Source: Botryllus schlosseri | Lineage: Eukaryota | DNA: 64,000 bases | Direction of reading: 5' to 3' | Assembly: GCA_051294905.1 (NCBI GenBank) | Contig: CM119372.1 | Location: 2,978,001-3,042,000, forward strand | Shown: piece after piece, positions 8,413 through 37,334 of the stretch | How positions within the stretch are numbered: position 1 is the first letter of the stretch | How the letters are laid out: every line of letters starts with the position of its first letter | Notes under the pieces: generated by a model | The model's database searches: none | Told to the model about the DNA's origin: nothing | Seen by the model: only the letters and a program-made list of their open reading frames with translations | Made by a program: the position numbers and the translations under genes

Positions 8413-9002
8413 TCACGCTTGAAATACAATTTGCTGTTGTACAGCGTACTGTTGTTTTGCTGGGCGGCGCTGGACGCTTATGAAGGGGGAGGTAGATTCC
8501 AGCATTTGGATGGTAATATCTATCATATCATCATTATCATCATCATCATCATCATCATCAATTATTAAATATTTTATTAAATCAATACACCACAAGATTG
8601 CGATATAGTGAAAAGATAGTAAGGTGCCGAAAGGACATAAAGTATAGTCTTTTAATGAGACACCCACCTTGGCCTACACTACTGCAGCATGTAAATAATA
8701 TAGGCATGCACACATAGGATTCAAGAAAGGATAAAATAAAAGGAAGCGACAAAAATGAATGCTGCATGTGTCGGTAGGCGATGTCGATTTGTCAGATTGT
8801 GGTCCGATAATCTCGAGGGCTGATTCAGTAGAAATTGCTTGTATTTAGATTTGAACGTGGACAAATCTGGACATGTTCGACGACTGTCGGATAGCCGGCG
8901 AGATGCTGATCCACACCACAGGTCCGGCATACTTGATTGAGCGAGTAGCTGCTCCGTATGGTGACTGACCAACGTCGTGGGATCCATGCTACACAATCGG
9001 CG
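8413..9002 (-). CDS. Candidate cytoplasmic-tail exons of receptor B (8970-9002 and 8413-8476)
   Basis: ttttcctag|(C)ADCVAWIPRR|gtcagt then cccttcataag|(C)VQRRPAKQQYAVQQQIVFQA*; both phase 2; alternative tails exist. Confidence 0.35.
8521..8960 (-). mobile_element. CR1/L2-clade LINE 3' end fragment
   Basis: RSIKYAGPVVWISISPAIRQ / DLSTFKSKYKQFLL resembles the CR1/L2 ORF2 C-terminus; 3' UTR, AATAAA and (GAT)n tail; UTR homologous to 58541-58710 and 59260-59480. Confidence 0.7.
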
Positions 9003-9429
9003 CTAGGAAAACGAAAAAGCGAACACAATATTGAACCCAATAAATACGGCTGCCCGAAGCGCACTTCTTGTATCCCGAGATAGAATTTCCAAGATGTCGT
9101 ATTGGAAGTAAAGTAATTACTAATGACGTGTTGGTATTATAATATATCAGAATAAAAAAACGCATTTCAATTCACACGGTCTCGGTCCCTTCAAATTCTA
9201 TAGATACCGCTATGTTGCTTAACATGGAATCATGGCTTACAGCAGTGGTTCTTGAACGTTTAGGCCGCGACATAAATCTGAGTTCAGTGACACCACGCGA
9301 CCCTTCAAGCTTCACACATCAAAATGAATGCAATTTAATATTAGCATACTATACGTTTTTATAGGCATGGCATAGAGAACGCGAAGACAACAGTTGTTCG
9401 CAACGCAGCTCTATGACACATTTTTGTCG

Positions 9430-9815
9430 CACCGAGAATGCTATTACGGAGAACGGCCATTACTGAGAACGGAAATTAACGAAAATGGACATCACCGAGA
9501 ACGGACATTACCGAGAATGTATATTATCGAGAACGGGCATTACTGAGAACGGAAATTACCGAGAATGGACATTACCGAGAACGGACATTACCGAGAATGT
9601 ATATTATCGAGAATAGACACGGCCGAGAATGGACATTACCGAGAATGTCATTACCGAGCATACATTACCGAAAATGGACATTGCCGAGAATCACATTACC
9701 GAGAATGGACATTACCGAAGATAGACATTACCGAAGATAGACATTACCGAGAATGTATAATACCGAGAATGGAGACTACCAAGAGTGACATTACCGAGAA
9801 TGTACCATACCGAAA
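9430..9815. repeat. Minisatellite, about 16-bp unit ACATTACCGAGAATGG
   Basis: More than 20 degenerate tandem copies visible. Confidence 0.92.
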
Positions 9816-10560
9816 CTCTCAATTTCCGAAATATGAATTCACCGACGGCAATTAACATGTTTCCTCATGTGGAAACAATGTATTCTCCAATATATTGGTA
9901 CTCGATTGCTCCGCCATTTAGCCACCCACCTCGCTTAGCTGACCACCAACACGTCCTATGACTTCAGCGCTGTATACACCATTGTCTGCCAGAAGTTGAT
10001 ATTGACCAATTGCCAAAGTTATTGTGGACCACTTTGCACCATTATCGCGTATGGAAGCGAACTCGCTCCGAGAGTTCATCTGTACTATTGGAGCCCAGCA
10101 CGGTCATTGGTCAGTGGCGAACTCTGGCAAACATGGCCAGCTCTTTAAAATCAACTTTTGTTCTAATGCTACTGGCTATTTGATAAAATTATTAGGTTGG
10201 ATCATGGTTGGATAGAGAAACGCTGCACTGAAGACACACATATTTGGCTCAATCCCAAACTGTAAGAGCCGCTAGACTCATACTAATAGTAATAATATTA
10301 ATATCGTTACATTGCATTTGCTCGTATTAACAACTGCGTACGCATATACATTAACCCAGCTATATTAAAATTTAATTCCAATGTCGTACACAGCTGGGAT
10401 TGTGCCTCTAATTATCGAAAGTAACTCACGACAACCAAAGGCGTAGCAGGTAAATCGCCACTTGTGCGATTGTTATGTCATACTGGCTCAAGACTGACAG
10501 CGTGAAATTGAATGACTTTGAATCTGCGCAATTGGCCACTAACAGACTCGAACGGACGTA

Positions 10561-11456
10561 CCGTAATTTTCCATGTATAATCCGCAAAATTTTCACGATT
10601 TTTTGCCCTAAAATAGGGGGGTGCGTATTATACATGGGTACAACAAGCCTTGAAAAAAATCTCCCTCAATAAAAAACTTGAAATCACACCTATCTTCATG
10701 TTTGTTTCCAATCGCGCATCACTTTCAGCCATCGCGCGTAGTAATTAGTGGGAAGCGTGTTGCCAATTAACGAGAGTCGTGTGCAAAAGCACGCGATCTT
10801 CTGCTGAGTTGTTTGGGCGTTTGTGCGCGAGCGGAATTAGGTCACTCGCGCGCGGCAATTCTCGCCAATTCATCGCGTCAACGACAGGCCCGAACAATCG
10901 CATATGCAATTTATACATACACAAGAGGCCATGTGCGCAAGATATAATCGCTTGCGTAATCAGTCGCATCTCTAATAGACTTGTTGCGTATCACATAACC
11001 GTTAGCCTAGGCGCAATCGCAACTACACACACACAAACTAACTCGCCGCCGGCCTCTCAGGCTTCGGCTGCTATCTACTATCGTTTAGACACAATACCGT
11101 TAATTGTATAATGATTAGCAATCGCATCTGTAAAAGGTCTCCTCGTGCTCAAGATGTCGTGTCGCTAGCCTGAACTATCGCGTCGGGCGCCGCCCGCCTC
11201 GCAGGCTTTGGCTGCTATCTACTATCGTTTAAAGACAATCCCGCTAATTGTATAATGATTAGCGATCGTTGTGTAATGATTGTTCAAGAGTGACATCGCA
11301 AAACAGAATGACATCGTATACGAAATCGGAACTATTCACATGTACTGAAATGCAGGGTGCGTACTATACATGGGTACAGGCTTTTTCCCAGAATTTACAT
11401 GCTATTTTAGGGGTGCGTATTATACATGGGGGCGTACTATACTTGGAAAATTACGG
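10561..11456. mobile_element. pogo/Tigger-like MITE
   Basis: TIR CCGTAATTTTCCA(T/A)GTATA, TA TSD; the empty site is visible in the paralogous repeat near 44126. Confidence 0.9.
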
Positions 11457-12137
11457 TAATTGATTAGCGCTAAAACTAAAACATCAGAAGATGTGTGTTA
11501 AGGCCAAGTTATCAAAAGATACGGCAGGCCTGAATCACCTGAACTCGGTGCCATTACAAAATAGATTCCACAGCAGACTTCAATCGTATTAATTTGTGAA
11601 ATTGTTTGTCGTCAGTGAGGTTGCGTATTCAATCGTTCGCGCGCGCGTGTTGATGAATAGTGAATTGTTGATATTGAAGCGAGATCGAGGAATCGCTAAT
11701 CAAACGCTGGACTCGCTGGCAAACTTACGCGCACCTTTTCAAGCGAGGAATCCCACGTTCGCAGTACAGGTTCGAGAACTACGTCAATGGAAACTGATCA
11801 ACAGCTAATTGCAACAGTAACCGTGAATAGTAGTGACCTTATTGTTGGGCATTCAGACACCCGTGTTGGCGAAAGTATCAATTAATAATGAAAAAAACTA
11901 GCCCTGGCGAGTTTGCTGGTTCCTATTGAACGCATCATTGTTAACACTCTCAAAATATATCATCATCCTTCATCATCCTTAAATCTCAGCCTTTGCGCAG
12001 TGGAGCCGGAGCAGTGGTATCAACAAGATCCGGAGCGGGAGCAATTTAATATTTCCGGCTGACCCAAAACCCTGCTATCATCTCCACGTTTATCATGAAT
12101 TCCTTCTCCAACTATTTGTCATTAAGGTGACGCTTAC

Positions 12138-12246
12138 CAGATGTGCTTTCGCCCCAGAAATACCAACACTGCGGTTAAAGTGAACAGAGCAACGACAGCA
12201 CCCACAGCATATCTCCAAGGTGGTGTTTTGGCAACCTGTGCTGAAG
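12138..12246 (-). CDS. Ig receptor B exon 12: transmembrane helix
   Basis: ttttcag|ASAQVAKTPPWRYAVGAVVALFTLTAVLVFLGRKHI|gtaagc; hydrophobic stretch followed by a basic stop-transfer; phase 1->2. Confidence 0.85.
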
Positions 12247-12394
12247 CTGAAAACATCACCATCGGATAAAACTTGTGCAAATTATTATGCGCTCATTCGC
12301 AGCAACTGGACAGGAGCGAACACTGGTCAAGACTGCGGAATCCAATTTCGACATTGCGCTTCTTTCTAGGTCTTCTACTTTGGAACACTTAGAT

Positions 12395-13090
12395 CAGTGC
12401 TTTTCAACCTTTTTGAGCTTCATTCGGACTTTTTTTGTAAAATAAATTTCATTCGCACAAACTAACCGAAAATCGTTATGCAAAAAGCAGATGAAAATAC
12501 AACATTTATTTGTTCAGATGTGCCACAAATCGGCTAATGTATCTTAAGCTATGAAGTGTAGTGTCTCATTAAAAAGGCTACTATTTTCGCTCGTTTTCAT
12601 TTCAACTATTTCACTAAAACCCTTCTCGGCCAAACAAGTTGTTGGGTTTTGTACAAGAACGTCTACTAGTGCTTGGACGGCCAGGTCTTAAAATCTGTTC
12701 TGCACTTCTATCCAAAATACAACGTGTTTTTCACGAGTGAAAAATGCTTGCTGGAAGAAATCGATTTTGAGAGCTGACGAAAAGGTCTAGGAGACTCCAG
12801 TACGTCGAAATGGTGAAAAACCCACTTGTTTGTGTTGAGGCTTTCGCCTTATGTCTTGGAAAATAAGGTCCAAACGATCAAGAAGAGTAGGCACATTAGA
12901 GCTCGCTACCTTATGATACTTTTTTTCGATTTCACATTTTCTGTCTTGCTAGTATGTGGGAAGAGCAAATTAACTCACGATACTGTGTGTTCTGCTCTTT
13001 AGCTCAATCTAACTTGAGAATTCATAACAGTTGAATAACGTTAAAGCAAATTTTTATACTACCACCAAAATCTGAGTTTTTGCGGCATCT
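12395..13090 (-). mobile_element. Degenerate hAT (Buster/Charlie-type) fragment
   Basis: CAGTGCTTTTCAACC terminus; remnant VLVQNPTTCLAEKGFS on the minus strand. Confidence 0.6.
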
Positions 13091-13285
13091 GGCGACCCGA
13101 GCCTCACCCATGAAAAGGAATTCATTTTGAATATTACAGCAGTATGCTACGATTTTACGGACATGTATGACATACAGAACGCGCACAACACAATTCTATC
13201 CAACACAGCTCTACAAATGTGTCTGACGCACGCGATTTAAAATTAAGGTGAATTAAATACCTCCGCGTGTCGCAGTTGTACTACT

Positions 13286-14262
13286 TAGGGATGGTGTGAA
13301 CCTCTGAAAGGTTCAGGTTCGTGTGAACGCGAACCTTTTTGAAAGGTTCTGTGTGAACGCGAACGTGAACCTCATGACGTCACGTGACGTCATATTGCTA
13401 ATTCCAAACCTATCTTTCAATGAAGTGATAGCCTAGCGACGAGCCACATAATGCCACAATGCTGAAGTACATATCGGCGTTTTAAACGTCGCTAGATGTA
13501 TCAACTGAGGCAATCAGATGATAAAATACTTCCATAAAATCAATATCATCCGTCGCGTTGCCAACAATTTCGACGAGGACTAGCCAGGGAATATACGCTT
13601 ACGCCTTAACGATCTTGGCCAGACCGGACAATGTATTCTGCGTCTGAGTATTGCCAAATTGATATTGAGCAGAGTGTAAAGCAGGTTTCTATACTTGCTA
13701 CTGATATTAGGCTATCCCACAAGTTATACAGCTGTAGCAAACACCTCAATCGTACGGATTTTGTTTTAATGATGCAGTAAACATATGAAGCCAAGATTGA
13801 CCCCGTACACCTGCTAGATTTGTTACATCAAAAAACTATATCAATCTCATAGATTGATTGGTTGAATAAACATCATTCGCTGACTACATGTAGTGTATTT
13901 CGCTCGTGATGTTGTGTGATTTCGGGTCAAGCTCACAACAGAGTGTCACTAAATATTCACAAACGGGAAGCTGGATATTTCGAGCAAACTTTTGTAATGA
14001 AACAAGTAAAATTTTTGAGATTGTCAAGGTGCATGCTCGTTTTGCTCTGATTTTTTATGCTGCCAGCGCCATGCATAGAGTGGCCCACAGTTGAAATGCA
14101 ATAAATTCGAACCAAAGATGCAATAATTAAGTGAAAATTGTAATATATGAAAACGGTTCACAGTGCAGAACCTACCAAGGTTCTGTTGTGAACGCGAACC
14201 TCTAAATTTCCGAGGTTCACACACAGAACGCGAACGTGAACCTCACGTTCACACCATCCCTA
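13286..14262. mobile_element. hAT (Ac-like) non-autonomous element
   Basis: TIR TAGGGATGGTGTGAAC / GTTCACACCATCCCTA; many GTGAAC/GTTCAC subterminal repeats; imperfect TSD G(T)ACTACT. Confidence 0.85.
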
Positions 14263-15928: not shown

Positions 15929-16124
15929 CTTCAATTTCCGCGGTCCATTCGAATTTGGCTCTACTCTCTCCAAGCTCGTTCTCAGCAATACATTGGTAGG
16001 TGCCAACCGGTTTGTGTGACATGGTAAGCGTGGATTTGTTGTCAGAGATTTCTTTGACTGTAAACGGATTTCTTTTAGTATTCGGCTGGGCAATTTTGAC
16101 CAATATAGGGTCAACAAATTTCTC
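15929..16124 (-). CDS. Ig receptor B exon 11: second half of domain 5
   Basis: gtag|EKFVDPILVKIAQPNTKRNPFTVKEISDNKSTLTMSHKPVGTYQCIAENELGESRAKFEWTAEIE|gtcagt; phase 0->1. Confidence 0.88.
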
Positions 16125-16715: not shown

Positions 16716-19430
16716 CAGTGGCGGCTCGTCCTATAGGGCAACTGGGGCATTGCCCCACCTAAAATTCTGTTCAATAACAATTTAACCATTTATAGACGCA
16801 CAGCGCTCAATATATATCGAGATCACAGCGAAACCCGCGTTCTTCTTGTGCTTTCGCTTGCAAATGCCCATACATAGCGAAGTCTCCGCGAAAATCGAAT
16901 TCTCTTCTGTGTTTTCGCTTTGTGAATGCCTAGCCGGGGCTTGTCCCGGTAGCGCTCATAACAAGCTTTCACTATCTATTCTCTCAAAGCTGCGCACAAT
17001 TAAGAAACGTTGCTTTACTCTCTCCTATTCGTAAAATGGCCGAGCAACCGGGGCAAATATGCTTGCTCGCCCCTAAGGTGTGATGTAACAATCGTATCTA
17101 TATCTGAACTCGGATACCGTGATATGCGTTGAGTCGACCGTTGCTGGTACAGGTCGATTTTGATGGTGTTTCACACCATGATAATTCTTGAAACTTGGTA
17201 TGTCATGTCGTGATGGTGGTATTTAACACTGTCCTAAGTTTCAGGGTTTCTACTCAAAGTTTAGGGTAGTAATTCCGTTTCCAAAGTCGAGTGTGTGCTG
17301 ATCGGTCATGTATCGCAAACATATTTCACGCAAAGCCGGTATTGGTCTCCATTGATTTTAACGATGCTCCTTAGCTAGATCCGTCATGAACTTTTACATG
17401 GTATGTCTTGATTTTAGTATCGAACGCTGTGCCAAGTCTCAAGGTTGACACTCAATGATTAGGGCAGCAATTTCGTTATTAAGTTCGAGTATGGTAGAGA
17501 TGTGCGCTGATCTGACACTTAGCCTACCTAACGCATTGCGGATTTCACGCAAAAGCCGGTGTATCTGTGTTCCATACTGAGATAGGTGATGAGATGATGA
17601 TATCATGAAACAGTTTACTAACATCCTCGGTTTGCATTCAAATATTTAGTTTTATTTTATATTCTCCAATGTCAATTTCACCGTGGAATGGTGGCCTTCG
17701 GGCCATTTGCTCACAATTACAACCCCTGTCAAGCGCGATAGCTGTTTCGTTTTCGATGGCGGCTAACAGCTGATCGCTTGATCAGCCGATTCCTCAGTAA
17801 ATATTACGCAAAATTCGGCGTTGATCTGTTCGTATTAATTTTGACAGTGTACCATACCGAAAACGGTCATGAGGCTATACTTCTCGATGATTTCATGTAA
17901 CCTTGTACCAAGTTTTCGGCTTTCATCCACGTATTTATTCGGTAATATATTTTCCGAAGGCGATTTTGCAGCAGACATATAGACACTATAGACCGTAAGC
18001 CGTATGTGTCGTGTGACAGTCTCCAGCCTCAAGGCCAGAATCTCCCAAGCTGTACCGGGACCGAATTTCCGAGGCTGCTATCCGTAGTTCTTCAGAAAGA
18101 TGTTTTGGATTCAATATGACATTTCCTTGTCCAATCTATGAGATAACAATTGCGTATGTGTCCGAACTCGTTGACCTTTCCAGTTAGGCATACGCAATCT
18201 CTCGATTTATAGTCATTTCCATTTCTGCAGATAAGTAGTCAGGTCAAGTGCGAACATGAATCGTGTTGAATCTTTGCTCCGTACGCCGTTTAGCCAGCTG
18301 CCTTCAGAGCAAAAATTAGAGGTAAAGCGACTAGGTCCGTATCAGCCTAGAAATTGCCCATTGATCCAATCGTACGCCGGAGGAAAGCGCACTCGTGCCT
18401 TTTCTTCAGCGCATTTCGATAAAAATGAATGGCTTACTTATGGCGAGGATAAAAACGCCTTGTTTTGCTTTTACTGTCTTTTATTCGACAGTGCCGGTAC
18501 CGGAAGCAGTGGCTCTTGTTGGAACAAAATTGGTTATCGCGATCTGAAGCATTTGTCAGAGCGTCTGAAAACGCACCAAAAATCCCAAGTGCACATGGCT
18601 AGTGCAGTTAAATATAAATTGTTTGGCAGAGTAAATGTAATGTCGCAGCTCAATGAAAGTTATCGCGTATCAGTCTGCAAGCACAACGAGCTTGTAGATA
18701 AGAATAGGCATGTTCTCTCTCGGGTGATTGATGCCAATAAATTTATTGGAGTTCATGAATTGCCCCTTCGAGGCCACGATGAGAAGGAATGCTCTCTCAA
18801 TAGGGGGGTATTTTTGGATCTAATTAAATACACGGCTTCCATTGATAGCATTTTGCGCGAACATCTCGACACCGCGACAGTAGCTAAGGGTACCTCAAAG
18901 ACTATTCAAAATGATGTGCTTGATTCGATATATCACATCTATCTACAGCATTTGTTTACCGAGATTGTTGACGCTGAATTTCTATCTATTCAGTCTGACG
19001 AAACAACTGACATTACGTGTTTGTCACAACTAGTCGTGATTTTTCGGTTCACGAAATTTGGTATGCCAGACGAACGATTCCACAGCTTTGTGGCTGTTGA
19101 CGATCGCACTGCTGTCGGAATTTCTTACGTATTAAAAAAAAACATTACAGCCCTATTCAGTTGAGTCGAAACTTATTGCGCAAACCTACGACGGCGCAGC
19201 AGTCATGAGCGGATCGCGACATAGCGTACAAGTTTTAATGAAAGAAGTTTACCCGCACTTCTAGTCACGCCACCGGCAAACCTCTCGCGGCACCTACGTT
19301 AAAAATCATTGTTTACGGGAAATTCATGTGGCCATCATGAACGTTGAAAAACGCTACTGTGACGTCATATTGATAACAAGTCGCTTGCGGCCCTTGCCCC
19401 ACCACCCGATATTGTCACGAGCCGCCACTG
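16716..19430 (+). mobile_element. Internally deleted hAT DNA transposon
   Basis: 14-bp perfect TIR CAGTGGCGGCTCGT, 8-bp TSD CTATATCG on both sides, internal transposase. Confidence 0.95.
18256..19258 (+). pseudogene. hAT transposase (ZMYM1-like, TTF-type zinc finger + DUF4371 region), frameshifted and C-terminally deleted
   Basis: WL..FCFYC..H..S..H, LPLRGHDE, DETTD; frameshift in the A-run near 19140 continues as LIAQTYDGAAVMSG..VQVLMKEVYPH and then breaks off before the CxxH and dimerisation region. Confidence 0.9.
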
Positions 19431-22507: not shown

Positions 22508-22745
22508 CATTTTCCATTATCCACGAGATTTTTGGGGCTGGTCGACAGCTACCCACGACTTCGCACTTCAAAGTGTCAGTAGTGCGATCACGAGTTATCT
22601 TGACTCTCTCGGGCGGGAAATTGACTATGATCTCGATTTCTTTGGAGCTCTGGCCGATCTCGTTAACGGCATGGCAAGAATACGGACGCCATATCTCTTG
22701 AGACTTTCTGGACGCGATATTTGTAACCGGTAGCTACCTCTTTAC
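22508..22745 (-). CDS. Ig receptor B exon 9: end of domain 4 and start of domain 5, frameshifted near 22686
   Basis: GKEVATGYKYRVQKVSRDMA / PYSCHAVNEIGQSSKEIEIIVNFPPERVKITRDRTTDTLKCEVVGSCRPAPKISWIMEN|gtaagt; 238 nt is not a multiple of 3 between two phase-1 introns. Confidence 0.85.
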
Positions 22746-24070: not shown

Positions 24071-27064
24071 AATTGGAAGTAACACATTGGAATCATTTGA
24101 CTGGTCCGGCCCGCGAGCGATGAAAACTTTTGAATCTGGCTCGCGACCCAAGATGAGTTTGACACCCCTGGCGTAAACAAACAACAAGAAATGGCGCGAA
24201 TCGCGAAGAATATTTTTCGTTGCCAGAAATTCAACAAGTAGCACATACGAAACGATGTAAATAAGTCGCAACACATACTTTAAGAACCCATGATTTGTAA
24301 ACGATTTGCAACTAGGTAATTGCCATCATGCTCTTGCGTTTCGACCGCACAATACCATGCCACTTTCACTTTCCAACATTAAGCCTCGCATTTCTGAACT
24401 CAAAAAGCAGTATGGGCAGGGCAATTTTAAAATGAGCATGACAGTCGAACATCACGAGTTACAGCAACAACATAATGCAGAAAGGGTTCTGGGCTGAAAT
24501 ACCGCATTAGCGTAGCACGCATATGTCAATATTGGGAGGTAGAATTGATATACTGCAGAGTTATTCGTCGACAGGTGAAATGAGTCTAATATTTCATCAT
24601 CTTCTGGTAAAAAAGACCGAATTAAGCAATATTCACAGATTAACGGGGCGACAAAGCAAGAGGTAAAATAATATAAGCTATTGTAAGGTTTCGGGAAACG
24701 ACGAGAAACCCACAGATGTCAAAACTACTTCAAGTAGAGGTCGGAAGAGGGCACGTCGGTGGTTAGCAACTTGAACAATGCATCTTTGTGACTAACGCAA
24801 ACTGACTACCGGTATTGACGGTGCAAATAGGTACAATCTTCGACACTCTATTCAGCAGTTACTGTGGTGGTCATTTCGCTCGGAGCTCCTTTCAGAAATG
24901 TGTTGCCAACTTAGCCCAAAACTATCTTTTAGTTTTCAAAAACCAAAGTATGAAAGATAAGTAGCTTTGCCCAAAAACTTTTCGAGTAGAAGTTGAAATA
25001 AGAGCCACTTTATTAAGTAGTGAAAGTAGGCAATAACTACTTAATTACATGGAAAAATAAATAGCCTACTTCGTTTGTCTGACTACCAGTATATGCTGGT
25101 ATTCGACAAGGAAAACTTGATGCTGTACGAGCTAAACAGATAAATTTGAACTTGAAAGTTGTTCTTAGTGACCCAAGATATACGAAAAGGTTGTTGACGA
25201 TTGAAATAGCATACCTAATAGCCCGGGCAAATTTTTGTTGGGTTCAGATCGTGTGAAGGTTGCACTTCATTTTAACAAAAGTTTCAATATAAAGTTGCAT
25301 TCATATATATTTTTTAATTATTTGGGTTACAAGAGATACTCGAAAAATTCCCTTTTATAACCCAACAGTTTAGGATTTGTAAGGTGTCTGCTTGTTCCAT
25401 TTCTTTCTTCGCTATTCAATCGATCATGCATACACTTTTATGTTCGTTAATAGGTTTAAAACGTACATCACAGCTTTTCGCTGTAGGCTCGTGCAGAGCT
25501 GTCAAATTTGGTACTTTCCCATTTCACGGACGGCCTGGCGAGACCGATGAAAATTAGATTTTTGCTGGTACGCAGCAAGAAAATAACGCAATGTCGAAAT
25601 AATGTTCCGCTAAAAGCCAAACAGCAAAGCAATAACTCAGTCCTCCCACCCCGCCAAATCAATTCAAATACCACACCCCGAACCCCCTAGGCCTGCAAAC
25701 TTTATTCAGGCAATTCAGCAAAACTCAGTGTTGGTGACTTGAACAAATAAATAGCTTGATATAGATGACGCCCCAGTGCAAATGTAATTTTCGGCCGTCT
25801 CACCCGGGCGTCTGTGAAATGGGAAGGGACCTCAAATTTAAACGACAGTGAATTAATTAATCTAGCGACCATTTACATATAGTTCGGGCTGTCGTGCTTG
25901 GCTGGGGTTGTTGAAATTCCAGCTTGCAAGATTGCGTCATAGATCACGTTGATATGCAGCTAATCCATCACATAGCTCGTTGCTATGCGTATCAATGAGA
26001 ATAGAACCATACTAGATATAGTTTATAGCACGCTATTTAAATCACTCGATAAAAGTTGCAGTAAAAAGTTGCATGAAAAATCGAATAAAGTTGCGCTATA
26101 AAATTCCTGCAAACAGCTTAAAACATCGTACTACATAAATTCTGAGTATTTACGAGAGAGCGTGAGAGTCTTTATTTTCATCCAACCAAAATACATAAAA
26201 AAAAACAGACGGCAATGATGGTGGTACAGAAAATATGCATGCACAGTAGTCGGTATCAGACAGGAATGATCGATACGACCGTAAAGGTCAACTAGTCTGA
26301 TCACTATACTAATAGTAGCTATACAATGAACAATGAACGCTCGCGTGGATGATAAATTCTATCAAAATGTATACAATGATTTGAATCACTGATTATGTGC
26401 AGCATGCACCCCCTTCCCTATCTGGAACCTGTTTGAATCACCAAGTCGTTATCAACATTGCTATAAAGTATCGAACCGACTTTGTAGAACAGTATTGAGT
26501 CACTAAACAACTGTCAAAAGCACCCAGAGCTGGAATAATATCTGGTTAAGTGTCAAACAGTATTACGGATACTCGTCAATCACGGTATTGTTTTGTCTAG
26601 AGCTGGTGTAATTTCTACAACACTGACTACTTTGCCCACCTCTTCCTATAACCTATCAGAAATAGATCAACATTCCCAGTTTATCAATCGCAGACTTCCT
26701 ACAATGTTAGCAGCGAAAAAGAGTGAGTGAATATACAGTTATACACCCATATCGCACGAAACCAGAACCTGCCTCAGACTTATACCACGGTATAAATCCA
26801 GTACAACATTTTAATCCAAATTATGCATGCCAATAGAAACGTATGACGGTATGCGCGTGGGCACATATGGGATTTATCGCCACGATATAATTCTGAGTTA
26901 GGTTCTTTTTTCGCGTATCACCCTTTTGGAGTGAATATACGCTCTTATCGCTGGGGGCATAGTTAACCTATAGCCCCATATCACGAAAATTGTCGATATT
27001 TTCACCTCTAATGGTCGATACCGATATTCATATCAAAGTATCGACTCCAGATTATCGGCTAACC

Positions 27065-27763
27065 CAGTGGTTCCAACCGAGGGGAATTCCCCACTTAGGG
27101 GGAATTTTGAAATTTTTAGGGGGGAATATGGCTTTAGGATTGTATCGGAAGATACACTGGGTGTACGAGGTGTTTAGATTTTTATGGTAGAACTGTTAAG
27201 TATGAAACTAGTTCTTTACAATTGTATGATTCCTTGGAGGATTTTAGGGCTAGGTGTAGGCCTATGTATAAATGCCTTCCGTAGATATTACACCCCCGAT
27301 AACGTGAGGTTCGCGAGACGATTTCGCTGGGCCCGTGACAGCCTCTCGACCAAACTGCTTCTAAGCTGGGAAAAGTCGAGCCAAATTCAGCACAAAGCTA
27401 CTGGTGAAAATGTTTACCTTTTTAAGCCAACCAGAAGAGCTAACGTGAAAAACATACCAAATTCATCGATTCACCTCAACGCCATAGCAAGCGGAGTTGG
27501 TGATTTATTTCTCGTCAGCGGCTGCCGGACCGGTAAAAAACAGGTCAAATTTAGCTGTATTTTGCCAAAGTGTAGTGCGGTCCGCATTTGGCATAGTTCG
27601 AACATATCTGAATATGTTTGACCATGTATTGCTCAGTCAAGAATAATGGTTGTGCGTTAAAGAGTACCTTTTTTAGTCACAGGTAACATTTTCATACGGG
27701 GGAATTTTAGCTCAAATATCTCGGCCGAGGGGTCCACGATACGAAAAAGGTTGGAAACCACTG
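27065..27763. mobile_element. hAT MITE
   Basis: CAGTGGTTCCAACC..GGTTGGAAACCACTG; TSD GGCTAACC/GGTTAACC. Confidence 0.85.
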
Positions 27764-27831
27764 GGTTAACCCGATAATCTATCGGGGTCTAGTTTTGATA
27801 GATAAAAAAATAAAAAAAAATAAATGATTAC

Positions 27832-27948
27832 CTGCGAGTTTCCAAATATATGTACTCTTGGGGTAAGCCGGAGCGTCACACATCAGAAAAAGGCTGTAAC
27901 CCTCACGAATCACTCTTTCTCCGGTAATATTCACGTCGGTTGGCGGGT
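27832..27948 (-). CDS. Ig receptor B exon 8: first half of domain 4 (C2/I-set)
   Basis: cacag|(H)PPTDVNITGERVIREGYSLFLMCDAPAYPKSTYIWKLA|gtaatc; phase 1->1. Confidence 0.9.
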
Positions 27949-28013
27949 CTGTGATGAATGGATATTGGTTACGCGCTACTTCGTTAACACACATTCATCT
28001 CTTCTGCTTAGCA

Positions 28014-28820
28014 CAGGGTTGGGCAAACTTTTCATCACACGGGCCGCATTGAACATCTGAATCCATTCGCGGGCCGCACTATATTAAATTTGGATTATTA
28101 GCTTAAGCGCAATATTTTTATGTAATTATACAGGGACCGAGGAATTATGGATGTGATATCTATGTATATAATAAAAACTAATCAAATAATAATATACACG
28201 CGTCAGAAACATTGACAAGATTTTTTACGCTGGCCGTCCTCAACAAGCAATTTGGTAAAATTTGGGATGAAAGGCGGCGGTGTCAATTCTTAAAAGAGGA
28301 TGTAAATTTAACTCTGTGAGGAGAAAAGATCCGTTCATCGAATTGCCGATTCTACGTTTGGTTTACCTCCAGGACAGGCAATGCTGACAGCATCATAATT
28401 ATGCTACCTTAAATATACGCTTCTACAATATATAGTTAATATAAATATAAAATACTTCTACACATATCGAGGACATACATATACCTAACTTAACACACGC
28501 GTCGCAAATACAATCACATAAGTAATAAAATTGCTGCAGTTTCGCACTCATGATCAAAAATCAGAATTATGTTATTTCCGTTTTGAGTTTCTGTGATGTT
28601 TGCCAAATGAAACCTTGGAAAATACGTAAGCCTTGAGATCAGGCTACTACGTCAGCAATAAAATAAACATCATAGTAAGAAATATTAACAAATGGTATTG
28701 CCAAGTCGCTGCAAAGATTGCACTTCACTACGCATTATATTTTCTAGAGGATTTCGCGGACCGCACAAAACGGTGTTCTGGGCCGCATGCGGCCAGTGAG
28801 CCGTAGTTTTCCCACCCCTC
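28014..28820. mobile_element. hAT MITE
   Basis: CAGGGTTGGGCAAAC..GTTTTCCCACCCCTC; TSD GCTTAGCA. Confidence 0.85.
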
Positions 28821-29682
28821 GCTTAGCACATCTCTATAGTGCTATCATCGGATGTCAGATATGGCATAACACAGCATAACTAGTCATTTCCGAAAATATA
28901 TTGTTGAGATAAATCTGGAGGTACGCAGAACCACCACGTGGAATTGCATGCATACGTATACTTGAAGCTTCCGGGTAGCACTGTTCCGGGGCAATCACCA
29001 ACAACGCAGATTTCTTATTATTATTGAAGGGCACTGCACCCTAAATATGACGTGTCAAATAAAAGATATAAGTGTTAAACAACAGCAAGCCTTTCCCTCG
29101 GAGAATCAATGTATTCAATCCGCAGGTAAAAGATTCACAAGAGTGGTACTTTCCAGTCGAGCTCATCTCTGAGGTGTCGAGGTAACGCGTCATCGCTTCA
29201 TGCCACATATGATGCAGATTTACCCGACACGGAATCGAATAGTCAAATACTCCATTTTGCCAATGGTTCGATACTGTTCTACCGACGTTTAAGATTTGAA
29301 ACCTACAATGATCGTATAACTGCATACAAAACATGTAATACACACTACCCAGTATCCATATGCTAGTCAAAATATCATTTCTGTGAAGTCATGATCAACC
29401 CACAGTATTGCCACAAAATGCAATGAAATAGTAAGGGTCAAAAATCACCCAATTATCTTTATATGGCATAGACCTGGCATTATTTTACTTGTGCTCGCAG
29501 AAAAGGTACATATATCTGAAATCTTCATAGCACTTATATTCTTATGACGTCGAAATGGGTATACTCTATATAGAGTCGAATCACTCGGGTAATTCAGTTT
29601 GCCAAGCCCTAGTTACGCCAAGGCACAAAACTACAAAATGGTGTCGGAAAAATGAAGTCGTTACCAGAATGGTTCTACTTAC

Positions 29683-29866
29683 GCGGGATCCTGGACAAGT
29701 AGGGTCGCGATTCGTATGTTTTGCCCGCAATTTTCGCGACACAGGTGAAATTCTCTCGTAACGAATTTGGATGTGACGTCATCAAATGTCGAGGTACAAT
29801 CAAATCCACTGTTATGGTGGACATGCCAGCTACGCTGATGTGCCCCTTCATTTCTCCAGGAAGATC
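29683..29866 (-). CDS. Ig receptor B exon 7: second half of domain 3
   Basis: ttcag|DLPGEMKGHISVAGMSTITVDLIVPRHLMTSHPNSLRENFTCVAKIAGKTYESRPYLSRIP|gtaagt; phase 0->1; different frame from the ORF-track call. Confidence 0.8.
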
Positions 29867-32800
29867 CTGAATTCAATTATGTTAGGACCGTTTTAGTCGA
29901 GAAGGTGGCGTTGTTAATTTAGTTTTAGACCTAGATCAGGTATCTTTCGTTCAATGAATTAGCCTAGCACATACCTTATTAGAGCGCAACATTACCCAAA
30001 GAATTACGAATGGCGAGAAATGACTCTCATGCGGTCACGGTCGCTATGTAGACACGATTTAAACAACATTGGAAAGGGCAGAACTGGGCCTCAGACAGAA
30101 GCTCTATCATGGCATTGGCTATTGTTTTGAGACTTGCCGATAGCCATGATTCTGATACCGCCAATATGGACAGGCCGATGTATCGGCCAACTTTTTTGCC
30201 TTGTTGACACCCTTTTGAAATCTTCTGTTTTATACCAATATTAAAATGACTTGAAAATATATTCTGTTCTGGTGTGTGAGTATACTTAATAAACGTTTTT
30301 TTGTTTGTCTAGAGCAGTGGTTCTCAAACTTTTTTAGACACGCCCCCCTTTATGATAGTGAAAATTTTCGCGCCCCCTTATCGTCATATCACAAAATGCG
30401 ACCAGAATGCTAGCAATCCCAACGGATAGTTGGATGGCATGGAAGGTTATGACTGTTGATGAGAGAAATCTTCAATATGAAATTCGGACTATACACAGAG
30501 CAAAAACTATAAATTGGAGGTAAATCGCGCCTGGCGCGAAAAATGTTTTCAGTTTACCCCAGCCTCGCGTCCCTTCAGAATCATTCATCTCCCCCCGTCC
30601 AGTTTGAGAGCCACTAGTCTAGAGAGTAATTTATATAACAAACAACTTTCCTGGTAGCAGTCTACAGAAAAGCAGAATTTAGACGGGATGCTACGGACGA
30701 GAAACAACCAATACTCAAGACTTGCTTAGGCGCCGTCTTTTATTTTTGCACGAGGTGGCGGAGTTTTGTGACGTCATAATCATTCCAGACGGGTGACGTC
30801 ATATTCGCACGGATTTGGCGAATCGTGTAAATGCCGATAATACAAGGATCCTCGTGTTGACGAGCTTCGCGTATGATTAGGCGTAAGTTTAAGAGCGAGT
30901 ACAGCATGGTTGTCAATTAGCAATGCGTCGATCTCGCTTGAATACCCACTATTCACCATCACGCGCGCGAACAATTGATACGCGACTTCTGTGACGACGA
31001 ACTGAAAAATGACCACATCTGTTGTGGAATATGCCTTGTAATGGCACCGATTTCAGGGGATTCAGGCCATCTATTGATAACTCGGCCTTAACACACATCT
31101 TCTGATACTTTAGTATTAGCGCAAATCAATTACGCCCGCCCACTGCGTAGAAGACGGGTAGCTCAAGCCAGCGATGATTCATCAAGCCTGCTGTAATCTG
31201 GCCAGGCGTGTTTCGATGCATGCGATAAATCAGGCCTCCGCCAGACGCACTAAATCAAACCAGCGACCAGCGCACAGCAGTTGTTAAACGCCCAATTTCA
31301 GTGCGAATGAATAACAATCTCAGCAGGAGATCGCGTGCTGCTGTACTATACTACGGTGCACAGACTGGTACGTACACCAGTGATTCCCAAACTGTGTGCC
31401 GCGGCACACTATTGTGCCACCACAGATTCTCAGGTTAGCTGTACCGGTAGTCTTTCTGGGATTGCGGAAAACGGTGTATGTTAGCCAATAGGCATGCAGA
31501 CAAGCGGGTGCTACTAAAGGCGGTCTAACCTACTCAACAGGCTGACAAATGTGCCCGTGACCATGAAACCAATCATGGAATTGCCGATGAATGGGTCATG
31601 ACTGCTAGGTGGCTACATGTAGACAAAATTCTCTGATTGTTCCAAATCAACTCCTGAACTTGAAATCGTGCCATAAATCCCGTGCACAGTGTCTGGAATT
31701 CGCCTAACACTTCAACAATACCACTCATCTCAGGATTTGCTGCAAACAAATATTGGTGGGTAGTCAATTCATTTCGAAGACATTAATCAAGCAATCGTCT
31801 TACAGAAGAAGAACAGCTCATTGATTTATTAAACACCCGTTTTATAAAACGCCGTTTTCGAGAAAAGTTTTGGATGCCTCCTTCCAAATCCTGTTCCATG
31901 ATAAATGCAATCAAAACTTTATTGTCATTTGCACCTAATGGGTATTTGAGCATTATTTATTTTCGCTTTGACGGAAATATAAAGTCGTGACCGAAAGATA
32001 ATGGTTGGTAAACGACGAAGTGCGTGAATGTTTGTTAGCAATTACGCATCGTTTCAGTCGAATATATGTTTGTATAGCATAGCCATCGCATTAACACGGG
32101 AATCGATTTTTAAAGCTAATTTATTGTAAGTTTGCCGCGATCATTATATACTTTTTCTAGTGTACCACAAGCCGAAAAAGTTTCCACTGGTGTACACAGT
32201 CGATTCCTGATAACTGGCAGTACGCAGCACCAATAATACAAATTTCTGATACGGCATTTCAAAAGGACGGGCTTTCGGGTTTGAAATGGGGGTCCTAATT
32301 TACACTCTACGCTACGCGACTGGGGGTCCTAATTTACACTCTGATTAATATCAGTACGTAGGCCCCGATCAGCCACTCGAGTTTGATTGTGAAATGGTGC
32401 GAATAAAATTATTCAGGTGTCATTGCAGCAAGAGCAATATGGGCGCATGGCGCGACCTTATCAATAGAAATCCATTTCTACGAAATGCCAAATTGCTTGA
32501 AATTCGATCCGAGATACTGTCGCCCTCGATAGAGTCCGTCCAGCAATCAAGTTTATTGGAACATAGAAGGTTTCCGTTCAAACTAATCGCATAAATTCAG
32601 AATTTGCGCCCACGAGAATCTCGAATTATTTAGAATTATTTAGGAAGCTCCCGGAAGCTGTAAATAAAAGTTGCAAAAATTTGCCCAACTGATTACTATA
32701 AATCACGGATTACAATTTATTGGGACGTCCAAGCATTTTGTACGAGGTGGCCGTCAACCCGTAACTCGGCGCCTATGACTCAAGTCCCAAGTCGCGAATA

Positions 32801-35408
32801 TCATTCGTGAATAGAAATATGAAGCGAAATCGATTTGATAGCGGCTAGTTACTCTGCAAATTTTGATACCCATGACACTTATTGTGTAGATGTCTGGTAC
32901 AGATAGGTTTGCATTTAAAATAAATGGATGTTTAAAACACTTTGTTTAAAACATGTTTCAAATAAAGGCCTTTAAAAAAAATTCTGATTTTTCAAGTAGT
33001 AAAATCATGCCATAAATGTGTAAATGCTTTCCAAAAAACACGTTGTATGAGCCTACGGACGATTACCAGCCGACATAGCCGACGTATACGATATGGGATG
33101 GTTGAAACCCTCTAGTACGTAGATACTTCGTCAAAGGAGCTACATTTACCCTATATTTTGAATTGTCAAGGTCCATCCAGCATGACGTCACAATTGAATA
33201 TTCGTGAAGTCATGACTTAAGAAACAAACAAAAAAACAATAAAAACATGTTTTAAACAAGGGCCTTGTTTTAAACATGTTTGTTTTAAATGCAACCCTAG
33301 GTACAAAGTCAGAGGAGAGCGGCTTCAGATATTTTACAACTGACACCGAAAAGTTATTATCCACGCAATGCCAGCGAATAGAAATGCGAAAACCGACCTT
33401 ATCGCCCATCCTCCAAAATACTCGGAACTTTTCTGACGAGTCGACCTCAGACGTACATGTGGCCAAAAACGCCCCGGCGGGTTTCCCGCTTCTAATGTCC
33501 ATATGGGGGCGGTCTGAAACAAAAATGGAAAGTGAATGGAACATTGCGATTCTGAGAAAAATTCCAAGTTTCGAGACCAGAGCTTCACGCCAAAGCAGGC
33601 CTGGACTATCGCATGCGGTAATAAGATAATCCAGACATTTCAAGTTTCGAGCAGAACTTTTCAGACATTTAATTTGTTATATGGTGGTTTAGGAATGACT
33701 CGTATGACATTTGGATAGGGTTTGACTGAAATTAAGTGAGTTGGGCTATGAGAGAGATTAGGTTTGTGGTTGATTGATAAGTTAAATTCGGTTACGACAG
33801 ACCTGAAGTTAGATTACTTGGGCTAAGTCAAATTTAATCAGGTATGGGGTCAAGTTGGTTAGGGGTTGGGCGAGGAGTTCAATTCGGAAAGAGCGCATGA
33901 ATGAGGGGTGCGGTCTAGATAGCTTGACTAAGATTTAATCGGGTTAAAGTTTGGTCAAACTTTGTTTAGGAATAAGGATAGGACTTAGTTTGCCGAGCCA
34001 TAGCTGCAATCCGAGACGAGCGTCTCCAATTCCTAATAAGTGCCGATTTACCAGGCGTCGAATCCTTTCTGTTATGCTAAATCTGCTGATGGAAACTAAG
34101 CAAGCGTTACGTATCGGTCTTCTATTTCCATTATAATCAAGCGATCCAAATGAAACAATAATAGGGATTTTCTTGGTCTAAACCATGGGTCACAACTCTC
34201 AAACACGCGGCCCGCGAAGGCCTTTTAGGATTTCACGCATTCGACAATATATCCAAGTGTCATATATCTTTTTTATATTTATGAATCTTAAATTCACTCT
34301 AAAACAGGGGTCGGCAACCCCTAGCACACGAGGTGATTTTTCATGGCACACCAAACGAATTGACGCATACGACACGTTATAATCATGTTTGTGGCAAAAA
34401 GTCAAACGGAAATGTTCAAAATGGAAAAAGCTCGAAGGTGACCAAAATTATTTCGTAAAACAATATAGGTGATTCCAATATATTTTGAACAGCGGAAGTC
34501 TTTACCGCGATCTGTAGAGCTTTGCAGACAAACTTATGTGTCAAACTGACGTGTATGATAAAGGGGTGGGTACATTTTTCATGATCAAGTTATACCGTTG
34601 TAGCAACGTTGATGCGCGTGTCGCTTATTGGCTGTGGCACCGAACACAGAAACTACAAAAGAAGCCATAGGGGATAGTCCATAGCGCGAATAACTTTTTT
34701 TTGCAATAAATTAAGCAAATATTATTATATTAAATGATAGCTGTTGTGCGGTAGCGACCAGAATTTATACCTTTCGCGACTCATACTTGGAGAACCACTG
34801 GCGCAACTGATGCCGTTGCCAGCTTCAGATAAGCGGTTAGTGGATTTCCCTGCTTGAAACGATAAATATCACAAAACTAAAAATGTTTGGCACGCCAGCT
34901 GGTAATATTTTTGAAATTGGAATATTTTGGCACGCTGCACACGAAAGGTGGCCTGTCCCTGCTCTAAAACTACAAGAAAAACCTGAAATCTCAACAAACC
35001 TCACCACCACATCACTTTTAAAAATCTATCATGCAGTAGAAGATCATCTATTACGTCACATTTCTAGTTCATGATGATAAAACATGACCCGTTGATGATT
35101 CGTGACTGAAGATTGTGATTTGGATTGGTGCGAGCTTTCGTAAAATTACTCGATTTCGGATCGACTGAGTGATGAACTAAAATAATTCGAGTTGAGTCGG
35201 GTCTAACGTCAAAATCAGAGAAGGAGTTGCGTCTCGGAATAGTGACTTGGTAATCCTACGGACGCGACAATCTATGAAACTGTCATTGGAAATAGTAATA
35301 CCTTAAAACGTCGGAGCTTGCGTTGCGTAGGGTATATATAGGTATATAATGAGGTCAGTATGGAAACCATTGGCATTCTATGGCCCCCGTGACGTATAGA
35401 TTGGTTAC

Positions 35409-36231
35409 ATCCTTGGTGTTGTTTGTTCTCTTTATCCATGTTATTATCGGTGGCGAGTGAGGTAGTGGTCCAACGCTCCACAGCTGTAACACCGATGGAT
35501 TCTTCGGCGATTGGACATTTCTATTCCACGGGCTCTTAATCAGGGGTCCATATAGACACCATCGGGGTACAAGGTACATTGTGGAAGTATGCGTATATGA
35601 TGTGGAATATCTTCTGGACCAATTTATTCGACTGGAAAATATTCTTCGCGCCACGCGCGATTTTATGTGAATGGGCTTTTTGATTTCAATATAGGTACCA
35701 TACCATCAGAATTGGTGTTGGCGGAAAATCATATTGAAAGCACAAGGGGTACGATCGCTAAAAAGGTTAACAAGCAATGCTATTACTACGGCACAATAAT
35801 GATTATATTCAGATTGTTAATGATCTGTTCCAATATTAATCGACTTTATTTCCTTCTCAGAATTTGGTGTCAATGTCCCCGACGTGTTGCTAATGGTGAC
35901 TAGAGTTAATGACAAAAGTGCCGTGGTTTGGTTATATTGTGGCATATGAACTGAAGATGATCGAAATTTGCTGTCTTCAAGGAATATGTACTTGAAAATA
36001 TTTGTTACTAAAAATCTCTTCTTCTGCTGGAAATATGCTGGATATTCCAAGTATTTTCACATATAATCAGAATTGCGTCGCGGGTCGGATGAAGCCAAGT
36101 GGTAGGCCGTATGTTTGACACCGCTAGACTACACGATGCCCTACAAGCGTTTCGAAACGTAGATGTCCTCAACGTTCTATCCGAAGGAGCAAATGTCCTA
36201 ATGGTCCGACATTCGTCGCACACGCAATCCC
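35409..36231 (-). CDS. Ig receptor B exons 3-6: Cys-rich atypical domain 2 and first half of domain 3 (TGA at 35706-35708)
   Basis: Exons of 171, 130, 54 and 223 nt separated by 72-87 nt introns; phases chain 1-1-2-2-0 and fit both neighbours; GDCVCDEC..ACRASC..TTW..TALLSLTL..F*CRINW..YGPLI..SPPIITW. Some donors are weak (GTGAAA, GTCGAT). Confidence 0.55.
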
Positions 36232-36307
36232 CTTACAACCACGACGACGGAATTACGGCGACGTTGTTTAATAGTTACATACACCATATATCAAAATTTA
36301 TACATAC

Positions 36308-36459
36308 CTTTAACGATCAAATTAGATTTTGTTTCCGCATGCCCGTTAGAGGATATCGTGGTACATGTGTATTGCCCTCCGTCTGACTGTTTCAGATCAT
36401 ATATCCGTAGATTTGTTGAAGTAGATGTTAATCGTCGTCCAAACGATTCGCGGAACCAT
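36308..36459 (-). CDS. Ig receptor B exon 2: second half of V-set domain
   Basis: tttcag|WFRESFGRRLTSTSTNLRIYDLKQSDGGQYTCTTISSNGHAETKSNLIVK|gtatgt; canonical DxGxYxC; phase 2->1. Confidence 0.9.
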
Positions 36460-37104
36460 CTGAAAATTTCCCTGTCGCGTTATCGATGTCTTCTGGTTAT
36501 ACAAATACACAGACTTTGTAACCACTTTGATGAAAAACACCGATATGTGGTCAAAATCGTAGTTGCTGGTACTCTTGTAAAAAGAGAACTAATGCCGGAG
36601 ATTTCTAATCAAACACCAGCATAGGCGCATGCCCAAATTACTTCAAAAGTAGAAGGGAAACACGAAATTAATAGTTTGTCAGAACTCAGAAGGGATTTGG
36701 AGAAAGCGTGAATGTTTAATTTTTCAGTTGCGGAGCTCTCTTTTATCAAAAAGTAGCTCCAGCTCCGGAGCTCATGGATATCAATGCTCCGGCTCCCTCA
36801 AATACTAGGGTGACAACAATCAATTGCGTCAGTCATTAGTCAGTATCATCGGTTGCGAATGTTCTGCTATCACATCCTCATCAGCAACGTGGTTATTTAT
36901 AAAAGGTGAACCAAACAGAGAACAAGCGCATTGTAAACAAAAACCGCGAATGGCACCGACTTCAACTGTAGCAAGGAGGACACATAAGGTCGGCTACACT
37001 TCCCGGTACCATACAACGCGGAGAGGAACATGACCGGTTTAAAAGCATGTCCGCTGTCCTCAGTACTTGTACGCCTAACAAATAAAATTGTGTAATATAC
37101 TCAC

Positions 37105-37334
37105 TGAGGTTTTGGATGCAGGGTATCGTATCGGTGTTGCACGCTGTATTTAGCAATGTGCTCGGATCCCTTAGTCCAGTTGTAGGTCACGTTCGCACCG
37201 TATCCGGGGTCAATTAAAGGAGCGGAGCACGGCAGTTCCGCTCTCAAGCCGGCGAATTTGACTAGTTTATCCGCAGTGACGCATACTGCCAAGATATTCA
37301 CCAGCACAACCTTAAACGCCATTAGTTTATACAT
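37105..37334 (-). CDS. Ig receptor B exon 1: signal peptide + first half of V-set domain
   Basis: MYKLMAFKVVLVNILAVCVTA-DKLVKFAGLRAELPCSAP...VTYNWTKG; acceptor-like ttttgcag just upstream; donor CA|GTGAGT (phase 2). Confidence 0.85.

Follow-up and report, generated by a model that had tools for sequence, protein, structure and literature searches.

The window analysed here (64,000 nucleotides of Botryllus schlosseri, contig CM119372.1 of assembly GCA_051294905.1) holds on its minus strand a hidden gene of the Ig superfamily (IgSF), copy A, which begins at the ATG at position 37334. As far as the TM helix it consists of eight exons, all with GT-AG ends and every one kept in paralogues. A sequence-only reading had proposed such a gene, and its GT-AG exons were borne out, with eight leading to the TM helix in place of the twelve claimed. 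Exon 1 (coding; 37105..37334), which is matched in paralogues, encodes the signal peptide and the N-terminal half of a V domain; its best Atlas match was a V-set cluster (0.94), and an acceptor immediately 5′ of it suggests a preceding non-coding exon. Exon 2 (36308..36459) supplies the C-terminal half of the V domain with its D-x-G-x-Y-x-C motif (Pfam I-set, 1.1e-5; V-set, 0.0019), and eight of its 10 genomic matches were at E<0.001. The two halves of an atypical domain 2 are encoded by exon 3 (33398..33513; Cys and Trp; kept in copy B and at loci C8, C93, and C13; zero Pfam matches) and exon 4 (29683..29866; nine genomic matches, and none in Pfam, the PDB, or profile comparison). Exon 5 (27832..27948; six matches) encodes the N-terminal half of Ig domain 3 (Pfam Ig_3, 0.006), exon 6 (22508..22745), a phase 1-1 cassette, the C-terminal half of Ig 3 and the N-terminal half of Ig 4 (I-set, 8.1e-8 for its intact form), exon 7 (15929..16057; seven matches) the C-terminal half of Ig 4 (I-set, 0.0039), and exon 8 (12138..12240) the TM helix followed by basic stop-transfer residues. 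The ectodomain has four domains: V, an unclassified two-cysteine domain, and two I/C2 domains. The predicted signal peptide, V domain, atypical domain, and TM helix are present; the third C2/I domain was not confirmed.

Because each domain is split over two exons, Pfam scans and folding were carried out on exon-encoded half-domains. Domain 2 contains two cysteines over about 100 residues, spaced 60-61 residues apart in copy B and C8. Compared with a generic Ig alignment, its profile yielded a probability of 1.9%, like that of shuffles. The AlphaFold model of half of the domain (pLDDT 69, pTM 0.38) comprises one short helix and four strands, and Foldseek returned no match for it at E<=0.001. 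Judged from these models, it may be described as an unclassified two-cysteine domain and as an Ig candidate at most. Five Ig domains had been claimed, and a fifth was sought throughout the window. Over 2,251 stop-to-stop frames, an Ig profile reached i-E<0.05 solely in listed exons (exons 2, 5, 6 [two frames], and 7, and exon 2 of copy B), and the top score among 25 cryptic-exon candidates (the longest form per acceptor and phase, from 72) was 3.3 bits with a profile that also misses domain 2 and that an atypical domain could escape. The candidate at 24603-24456 is open in copy A, copy B, and C8, but it drifts like an intron (seven replacement and three silent changes against C8, counted by eye) and has zero Ig or Pfam score. 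A fifth domain built from cryptic exons was rejected on the profile scan, the low scores, and this intron-like drift.

A second copy had been placed about 1.1 kb downstream, and copy B indeed starts at 7282, 1,131 bp below 8413. Its exons 1-3 with their introns occupy 1..7321 on the minus strand, and the gene runs beyond the window to C2:2958434; its ORF is intact and 663 aa long, 238 of them in the tail. Exons 1-5 of copy A lie in a tract (26336..37373, minus strand) that matches copy B over 11 kb at 99.4% identity (62 mismatches, 1 gap) and covers exactly the membrane-distal domains. Exon by exon, the two copies are 98-100% identical in exons 1-5 and 75.7% identical in exon 8, where B and C8 share 91.5%. 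Compared with C8, the tract over exons 1-4 shows 78.8% identity, and most flanking segments 83-88%. An identity of 99.4% across exons 1-5 against 76% at the TM exon suggests recent conversion or recombination involving the front halves of A and B; conversion as the mechanism, and its direction, are presumptive. The pair is a clear example of ectodomain homogenization between tandem copies.

Behind this tract, copy A is damaged. Relative to the intact paralogues B and C8, its exon 6 carries a 2-bp deletion near 22687 (238 nt versus 240 nt), outside a homopolymer and with a substitution adjacent, which shifts the frame; the in-frame chain with matching phases that had been claimed breaks here. 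Skipping exon 6 restores an open frame of 343 aa with a whole hybrid Ig domain (as a single Ig domain, the joined exons 5 and 7 reach 42 bits), and reading through the donor of the TM exon leads to a stop one codon later. At locus C18a, exon 7 directly follows exon 5 with no exon 6 in the 893-bp intron, which leaves three domains; this copy appears damaged itself. Because one paralogue is without exon 6 and its skipping restores the frame of copy A, exon 6 is, as far as sequence comparison tells, a removable cassette. The family tail exon, found at four genomic places, none of them in the window, is absent from copy A: A-B homology stops at ∼11864, ahead of that exon, and a DNA contig of run X1 (11674-12069) crosses this 3′ breakpoint. 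Intron 6 of copy A contains a hAT-like DNA transposon (16716..19430; terminal inverted repeats, 8-bp target duplication) that is absent from copy B and encloses a DUF4371 ORF (18235-19161, plus strand). Copy A has no charged TM residue and no activating motif, and its upstream flank is without a donor-like site that B and C8 keep. It is probably a pseudogene or a null allele. In run X7, one contig seems to contain an A-like exon 6 with two additional letters; the frameshift could therefore be a polymorphism or be confined to this assembly. The read comparison covered 9901-29900 (exons 4-8), was dominated by repeats, and its 12 listed indel rows of 123 lie away from the frameshift site. Reading 6% and 13% of two RNA runs gave a depth of 0-0.1 on repeat-free exon bins, and the RNA-seq splice check gave no exon-exon joint among the joints listed (15 of 995).

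Exon searches of the genome, by which paralogues were to be counted, found matches at 12 places, two of which were demonstrated to be intact (B and C8); C4, C18c, C23, and C37 are known from search matches alone. The genome is that of a tunicate: a GH6 domain, a marker of this group, scores above its cut-off there. The products of B and C8 are type I membrane proteins (637-663 aa), each composed of a signal peptide, the V domain, the unclassified two-cysteine domain, a pair of I/C2 domains, the TM helix, and a tail; their exon ends are GT-AG, their frames are open, and they read as four domains without extra exons. The family gene has nine coding exons with the TM helix in exon 8, and every domain is split over two exons. 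The tail, encoded by one exon, is long (207-312 aa) and of low complexity, and ends in HTAV, PTAV, HTAM, or HIVV (n=4), that is, in T-A-V in two tails (C8 and C18b), T-A-M in one, and I-V-V in copy B, which departs from the T-x-V pattern. An ITIM consensus is present in one of the four tails (C8), ITAM and ITSM in none, and YxxM in those of B and C8. Other copies are broken or partial: C93 has a frameshift in exon 4, C23 and C37 comprise exons 7-8 only, and the 21 kb below exon 5 of C13 yielded none of exons 6-9. Together with the mosaic identity, this agrees with the earlier view of a lineage-restricted, duplicating family with turnover. Pairwise dN/dS between B and C8 was 0.19-0.69 over the ectodomain and TM helix, indicating purifying selection, and 0.29-0.36 for exons 7-8 of copy A against B and C8. 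Divergence is faster in domains 1-2 (65% amino acid identity) than in domains 3-4 (82-88%); in many recognition receptors, distal domains likewise diverge faster.

An orthologue could not be named from the sequence-only reading, and none passed in word-seeded protein searches restricted to longer proteins with exon 6 of copy B (0 of 13 candidates) or with the alignments of exon 1 (0 of 1,067) and exon 4 (0 of 1,111), each a weak negative. A profile of the exon 6 alignment, run against 1.84 billion representatives, had nothing but long multi-Ig proteins (at least 688 aa) among its top 150, so an orthologue is not readable from this search. Sequence search of the PDB gave generic neural-adhesion and VNAR Ig matches for exons 6 and 2 and no match for exon 1 or 4. 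In the tunicate IgSF literature, searched in mostly non-subscription texts and one supplement, no account of the family turned up; it is a small unannotated one, and its two intact members are worth annotating.

With moderate confidence, we regard copy A as a decayed tandem member of a small, tunicate lineage-specific IgSF family of adhesion or recognition proteins evolving by birth and death. By analogy, the intact proteins would work like adhesion or cell-recognition receptors of the nectin, CTX, or Kirrel type, the V domain binding a partner on another cell and the last tail residues anchoring to a PDZ scaffold. The family would turn over through gene conversion as well as duplication and unequal recombination, and copy A, although a pseudogene or null allele, would still exchange ectodomain sequence with B. 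Like the family, nectins/Necl and JAM/CTX proteins, of which JAM/CTX-like and nectin-like genes are present in Ciona, begin with a V domain, continue with constant-type domains and a single TM helix, and have a hydrophobic residue of the PDZ type at the end of the tail (PMC7826847, PMC2777377). Nectins have three Ig loops (V-C2-C2), as many domains as C18a but one fewer than B and C8; their C-terminal afadin motif, Glu/Ala-X-Tyr-Val, is absent from the family tails (PMC7826847), domain 2 of the family is not shown to be C2, and no sequence orthology was found. Kirrel/Neph proteins are also type I IgSF members with a long tail, and Kirrel3 ends in a PDZ-binding THV, comparable to the T-x-V end of C8 and C18b, but has five Ig domains instead of three or four (PMC4269076). 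The family, by contrast, is multi-copy with pseudogenes, and the likeness is one of layout.

It is unlikely that the family has the immune or allorecognition role suggested by the sequence-only reading and is a counterpart of Botryllus FcoR/fester or Hydractinia Alr. Copy-number turnover, pseudogenes, the faster divergence of distal domains, the ITIM consensus of C8, and YxxM in B and C8 would fit it. A Sushi domain has a four-cysteine pattern, which the two cysteines of domain 2 do not form. FcoR is a tunicate type I IgSF protein of similar length with multi-locus turnover and intergenic recombination (PMC12582321, PMC12065747), and its size and its layout of V, second module, two Ig domains, TM helix, and long tail parallel those of the family (PMC12065747); however, its second module is Sushi, its ITIM/hemITAM/core tyrosine tail motifs are not conserved in the family tails, and none of five family motifs occurred in the FcoR supplement text (71,231 characters), where short motifs broken across lines may be hidden. 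The tunicate type I protein fuhc-tm likewise has tandem Ig domains, but three of them, 15 exons with the TM helix in exon 11, and a short tail, and fuhc-sec lies 227 bp upstream (PMC3691228). Hydractinia Alr resembles the family in its genes, putative genes, and pseudogenes and in its variable domain number, but has one exon per domain instead of two, an Fn3-like spacer where the family has none between Ig 4 and the TM helix, and frequent ITAM/ITIM motifs (PMC9546547). On these domain, exon, and tail-motif patterns, membership in FcoR, fuhc-tm, or Alr was rejected. The dozen or so places are moreover dispersed, not one large cluster, and dN/dS between B and C8 is below 1. Immune function is not supported for the family; the conserved PDZ-type ends of the tails speak rather for junctional adhesion. 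The family modestly extends the set of candidate cell-recognition genes in a group used for allorecognition studies.

A quite unlikely reading takes copy A for a paired receptor or decoy, as for Siglec-11/16. It would then be expressed as a membrane protein with three domains and no tail, exon 6 being skipped, or intact in other alleles, and the TM donor read through, and conversion would keep its ligand-binding domains identical to those of the signaling neighbor B. SIGLEC11 and SIGLEC16(P) are adjacent IgSF genes whose ligand-binding exons are homogenized by conversion, like the A-B tract, and the frameshift-type, maybe polymorphic null of SIGLEC16(P) resembles copy A (PMC5701461); this is an analogy and no homology is claimed. 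As to the opposite signaling of such a pair, the sequences show no activating feature in copy A and no ITIM in copy B. The in-frame skip of exon 6, the natural lack of this exon in C18a, the confinement of the shared tract to the membrane-distal domains, the X7 contig, and the low dN/dS of exons 7-8 are consistent with a decoy. Against it, the two RNA runs give no support, copy A has neither a charged TM residue nor an activating motif, the flanking donor-like site is missing, the low dN/dS may predate decay, and C18a looks damaged too. Slightly more doubtful is the broader idea that the receptors of the family have their reach adjusted by gaining or losing exon 6 (three versus four domains), and that copy A, either a functional decoy without a tail or a polymorphic null, has its V and second domains matched to B by gene conversion; if true, an invertebrate chordate would have a counterpart of Siglec-11/16 pairing that is separate from the known fester/FcoR system. 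Expression of copy A would lend the locus greater importance, because a conversion-matched decoy/signaling pair is a strategy of vertebrate immune receptors.

It is improbable that an error of the assembly (haplotypes collapsed or duplicated falsely, or a wrong base) produced the tandem or the frameshift. Such an origin could account for 11 kb at 99.4% identity and for the X7 contig, and several other matches lie on small contigs (C18, 751 kb; C93, 47 kb), but A and B are 24% different at the TM exon, copy A has flanks and a transposon of its own, the A-type contig of run X1 crosses the 3′ breakpoint, and the deletion is flanked by a substitution instead of lying in a homopolymer.

The gene as first modeled, intact, with five Ig domains, and spanning 37334 to 8413, is highly improbable: its tail chain is in frame on paper and the exon at 24603-24456 is open in three copies, but the exon 6 frameshift and the paralogue comparison, in which the frames of B and C8 stay open across four domains, contradict it. 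Its two tail exons (∼9002-8933 and 8469-8413, minus strand, within 8413..9002) are not supported as a tail; although the splice-like sites at 9002 and 8933 are also present on C8, the exons are unrelated to the family tail and homologous to the upstream flank of C8, where their frame is lost. A dispersed repeat covers 8552-8944. The upstream flank of copy B (7318..10436, minus strand) is about 83% identical to that of C8, and the donor-like site shared by the two, at 7447 in copy B, could mark a non-coding first exon of this gene.

The minus-strand gene starting at ATG 37334 (copy A) has eight GT-AG exons that lead from a signal peptide to a transmembrane (TM) helix. Exons 1 (37334-37105) and 2 (36459-36308; Pfam I-set 1.1e-5, V-set 0.0019) encode the signal peptide and a V-type domain, for which the V-set cluster was the top Atlas match (0.94; profile match 97%). 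Exons 3 (33513-33398) and 4 (29866-29683) form domain 2, 100 aa with two cysteines and one tryptophan in Ig-like spacing; profile, PDB and fold searches assigned it to no class, which makes its earlier label, atypical, a fair one. Exon 5 (27948-27832), exon 6 (22745-22508), which ends one domain and starts the next, and exon 7 (16057-15929), which closes the second, encode two I/C2-type domains, and exon 8 (12240-12138) the TM helix. The extracellular part comprises four domains, not the five Ig domains from twelve exons of the sequence-only reading. When all 2251 frames of the window were scanned with an Ig profile derived from library proteins, no further match fell below i-E 0.05; the profile also fails on domain 2, however, and could likewise miss a second atypical domain. 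Among 72 candidate cryptic exons in introns 5-7, of which the longest form per acceptor/phase class was scored (n = 25), the top Ig score was 3.3 bits. One candidate, 24603-24456, has an open frame in both paralogues too; it was rejected as an extra exon, its conservation being no better than that of the surrounding intron and a Pfam match lacking (seven replacement and three silent changes relative to the paralogue on contig C8, by our own count).

The gene proposed from 37334 is thus real, but the reading frame does not survive in the assembly. Exon 6 measures 238 nt, compared with 240 nt in the tandem neighbor (copy B) and in the C8 copy, and this 2-bp gap near 22687 causes a frameshift and an early stop. 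Homology to copy B past the TM exon stops at ∼11864. One terminal exon encodes the family tail. It occurs at four places genome-wide, none of them in the window, where the best tblastn match (E 0.085; 56272-56385) lies within a retroelement. The junction at 11864 is present outside the assembly, because a DNA contig of sequencing run X1, which may represent the source sample, crosses it (4 differences and 1 gap over 395 letters). The two tail exons that had been extended to 8413 do chain in frame (9002-8933 and 8469-8413); however, the stretch that holds them, 7318-10436, is ∼83% identical to DNA upstream of the C8 paralogue, where the counterpart of the first candidate has an extra 19 nt. Private to copy A is a hAT-like DNA transposon (16716-19430), which has terminal inverted repeats, is flanked by an 8-bp target duplication and carries a DUF4371 ORF (18235-19161). 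Both RNA runs cover its sequence well, probably through other copies. A contig of run X7 over 22484-22712 has 231 letters per 229 places and 4 differences from copy A, where copy B has 9 substitutions. It reads as a possible A-like allele with intact exon 6, and as such would count against copy A as a fixed pseudogene. Copy A is probably a dead or null copy.

Exon 6, phase 1 at both start and end, behaves as a cassette in sequence comparison. It matches the genome at four places (exon 7 at seven, exon 4 at nine), and it is absent from one of three loci on contig C18 (C18a), where a single 893-bp intron separates exons 5 and 7. Without exon 6, the frame of copy A is open for 343 aa, its exons 5 and 7 join into one Ig domain with a score of 42 bits, and reading past the TM donor reaches a stop one codon later; copy A could therefore, in principle, encode a three-domain, tail-less protein. 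A distant multi-Ig gene (C11:16887020-16892635) shares an exon straddling two Ig domains (∼40% identity), and may be a relative or donor of the cassette.

The second copy predicted downstream was confirmed as copy B (ATG 7282), an open model of 663 aa and nine exons extending beyond the window; the C8 copy encodes 637 aa, one acceptor position being approximate. Sequence comparison shows the three to be mosaics. Copies A and B are 99.4% identical across 26336-37373 (62 mismatches), and 95.4, 89.9 and 75.7% in exons 6-8; B and C8 share 74-83% in exons 1-4 and 89-94% in exons 5-8. The shared A-B tract starts exactly where the B flank, compared with those of A and C8, jumps by ∼12.5 kb, which favors copying from A into B, a direction that divergence does not settle. 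Copy B exon 1 comes after the junction at 7318/7321, which skips ∼12.5 kb present ahead of A and C8. A strong donor-like site on the minus strand (7447-7522), kept in C8 and not in the copy A flank, possibly marks a first exon that is non-coding, its intron being much shortened in B. As an analogy, SIGLEC11/SIGLEC16P comes closest to the A-B pair (PMC5701461).

In raw RNA runs X17 and X21 (∼6% and 13% read; compared over 9901-29900, with exons 4-8), depth was 0-0.1 in repeat-free bins with exons 6 and 7. None of the 15 joints listed was an exon-exon joint. Low depth in two runs does not amount to silence of any copy.

Single-exon genome searches, which yield lower bounds, matched at least 12 places (A, B, C8, C93, C13, C4, three on C18, C23, C37 and C11, the last a distant gene; C23 and C37 with exons 7-8 only). 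Of the three loci followed along their whole length, copy A is broken and the other two, B and C8, are intact. Exon 4 of C93 is frameshifted, and C18a has a repeat expansion past exon 7, its TM exon appearing shifted. At C18a, 45-bp tandem units copied from the exon 7 3′ end fill ∼1.3 kb (C18:234900-236230) and show frame slips, and the 312-aa tail contains an internal duplication. Paralogues on small contigs may be haplotype duplicates. The postulated family is real and dynamic, albeit small; weak protein searches found no orthologue, and the family apparently lacks a description in the searchable literature.

Four family tails terminate in HTAV, PTAV, HTAM and HIVV. The T-x-V/M endings fit the class I PDZ ligand consensus. 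Of the four tails, one carries the ITIM consensus and two have YxxM; neither ITAM nor ITSM is present in any. Between B and C8, dN/dS was 0.35, 0.69, 0.32 and 0.27 in domains 1-4, 0.19 in the TM segment and 0.89 in the first 150 tail residues (amino acid identity 65, 65, 82 and 88%, 91% and, over the same tail residues, 69%). The value of 1.18 for domain 1 of A versus C93 (14 replacement, 4 silent changes) involves a broken copy. These values indicate purifying selection, the distal domains evolving faster, although pairwise values are blind to site-level positive selection. PDZ-type endings, sparse ITIM/ITAM motifs and purifying selection together favor an adhesion or cell-recognition role over an immune one; the intact proteins would be receptors held by a PDZ scaffold. 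Kirrel3 is described as terminating in a PDZ-binding THV (PMC4269076), and nectins as binding afadin via their last residues (PMC7826847); Ciona is reported to have one JAM/CTX-like and two nectin-like genes (PMC2777377).

FcoR is described as V-Sushi-C2-C2-TM with ITIM/hemITAM tails (PMC12582321, PMC12065747), whereas domain 2 here is not Sushi-like, and none of five family motifs occurs in the available FcoR supplement text (PMC12582321). For fuhc-tm, a gene of 15 exons with a short tail is described (PMC3691228), compared with nine exons in copy B, and each Alr domain is a single exon (PMC9546547), whereas exon 6 straddles two.

The window (C2:2978001-3042000; assembly of 495.5 Mb in 219 contigs) has ∼41% GC, CpG not being depleted across most of it. 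It also contains a short-period tandem repeat (9431-9815) whose family is dispersed genome-wide in dozens of copies, large fold-back/MITE-like inverted-repeat elements with internal tandem units (42529-43141 and 53387-55254), and a minus-strand non-LTR retroelement (55969-57324) with its reverse transcriptase in two frames (Pfam RVT_1); another copy of it, 88-92% identical, lies upstream of the C8 paralogue. The GH6 domain, in animals a mark of tunicate cellulose synthase, exceeded the Pfam cut-off at two genomic places and in none of 14 control genomes, which identifies the animal as a tunicate. Two long open frames with GH6 (531 and 545 aa), 43 kb apart on C9:15025585-15068854, are possibly duplicated cellulose synthase genes.
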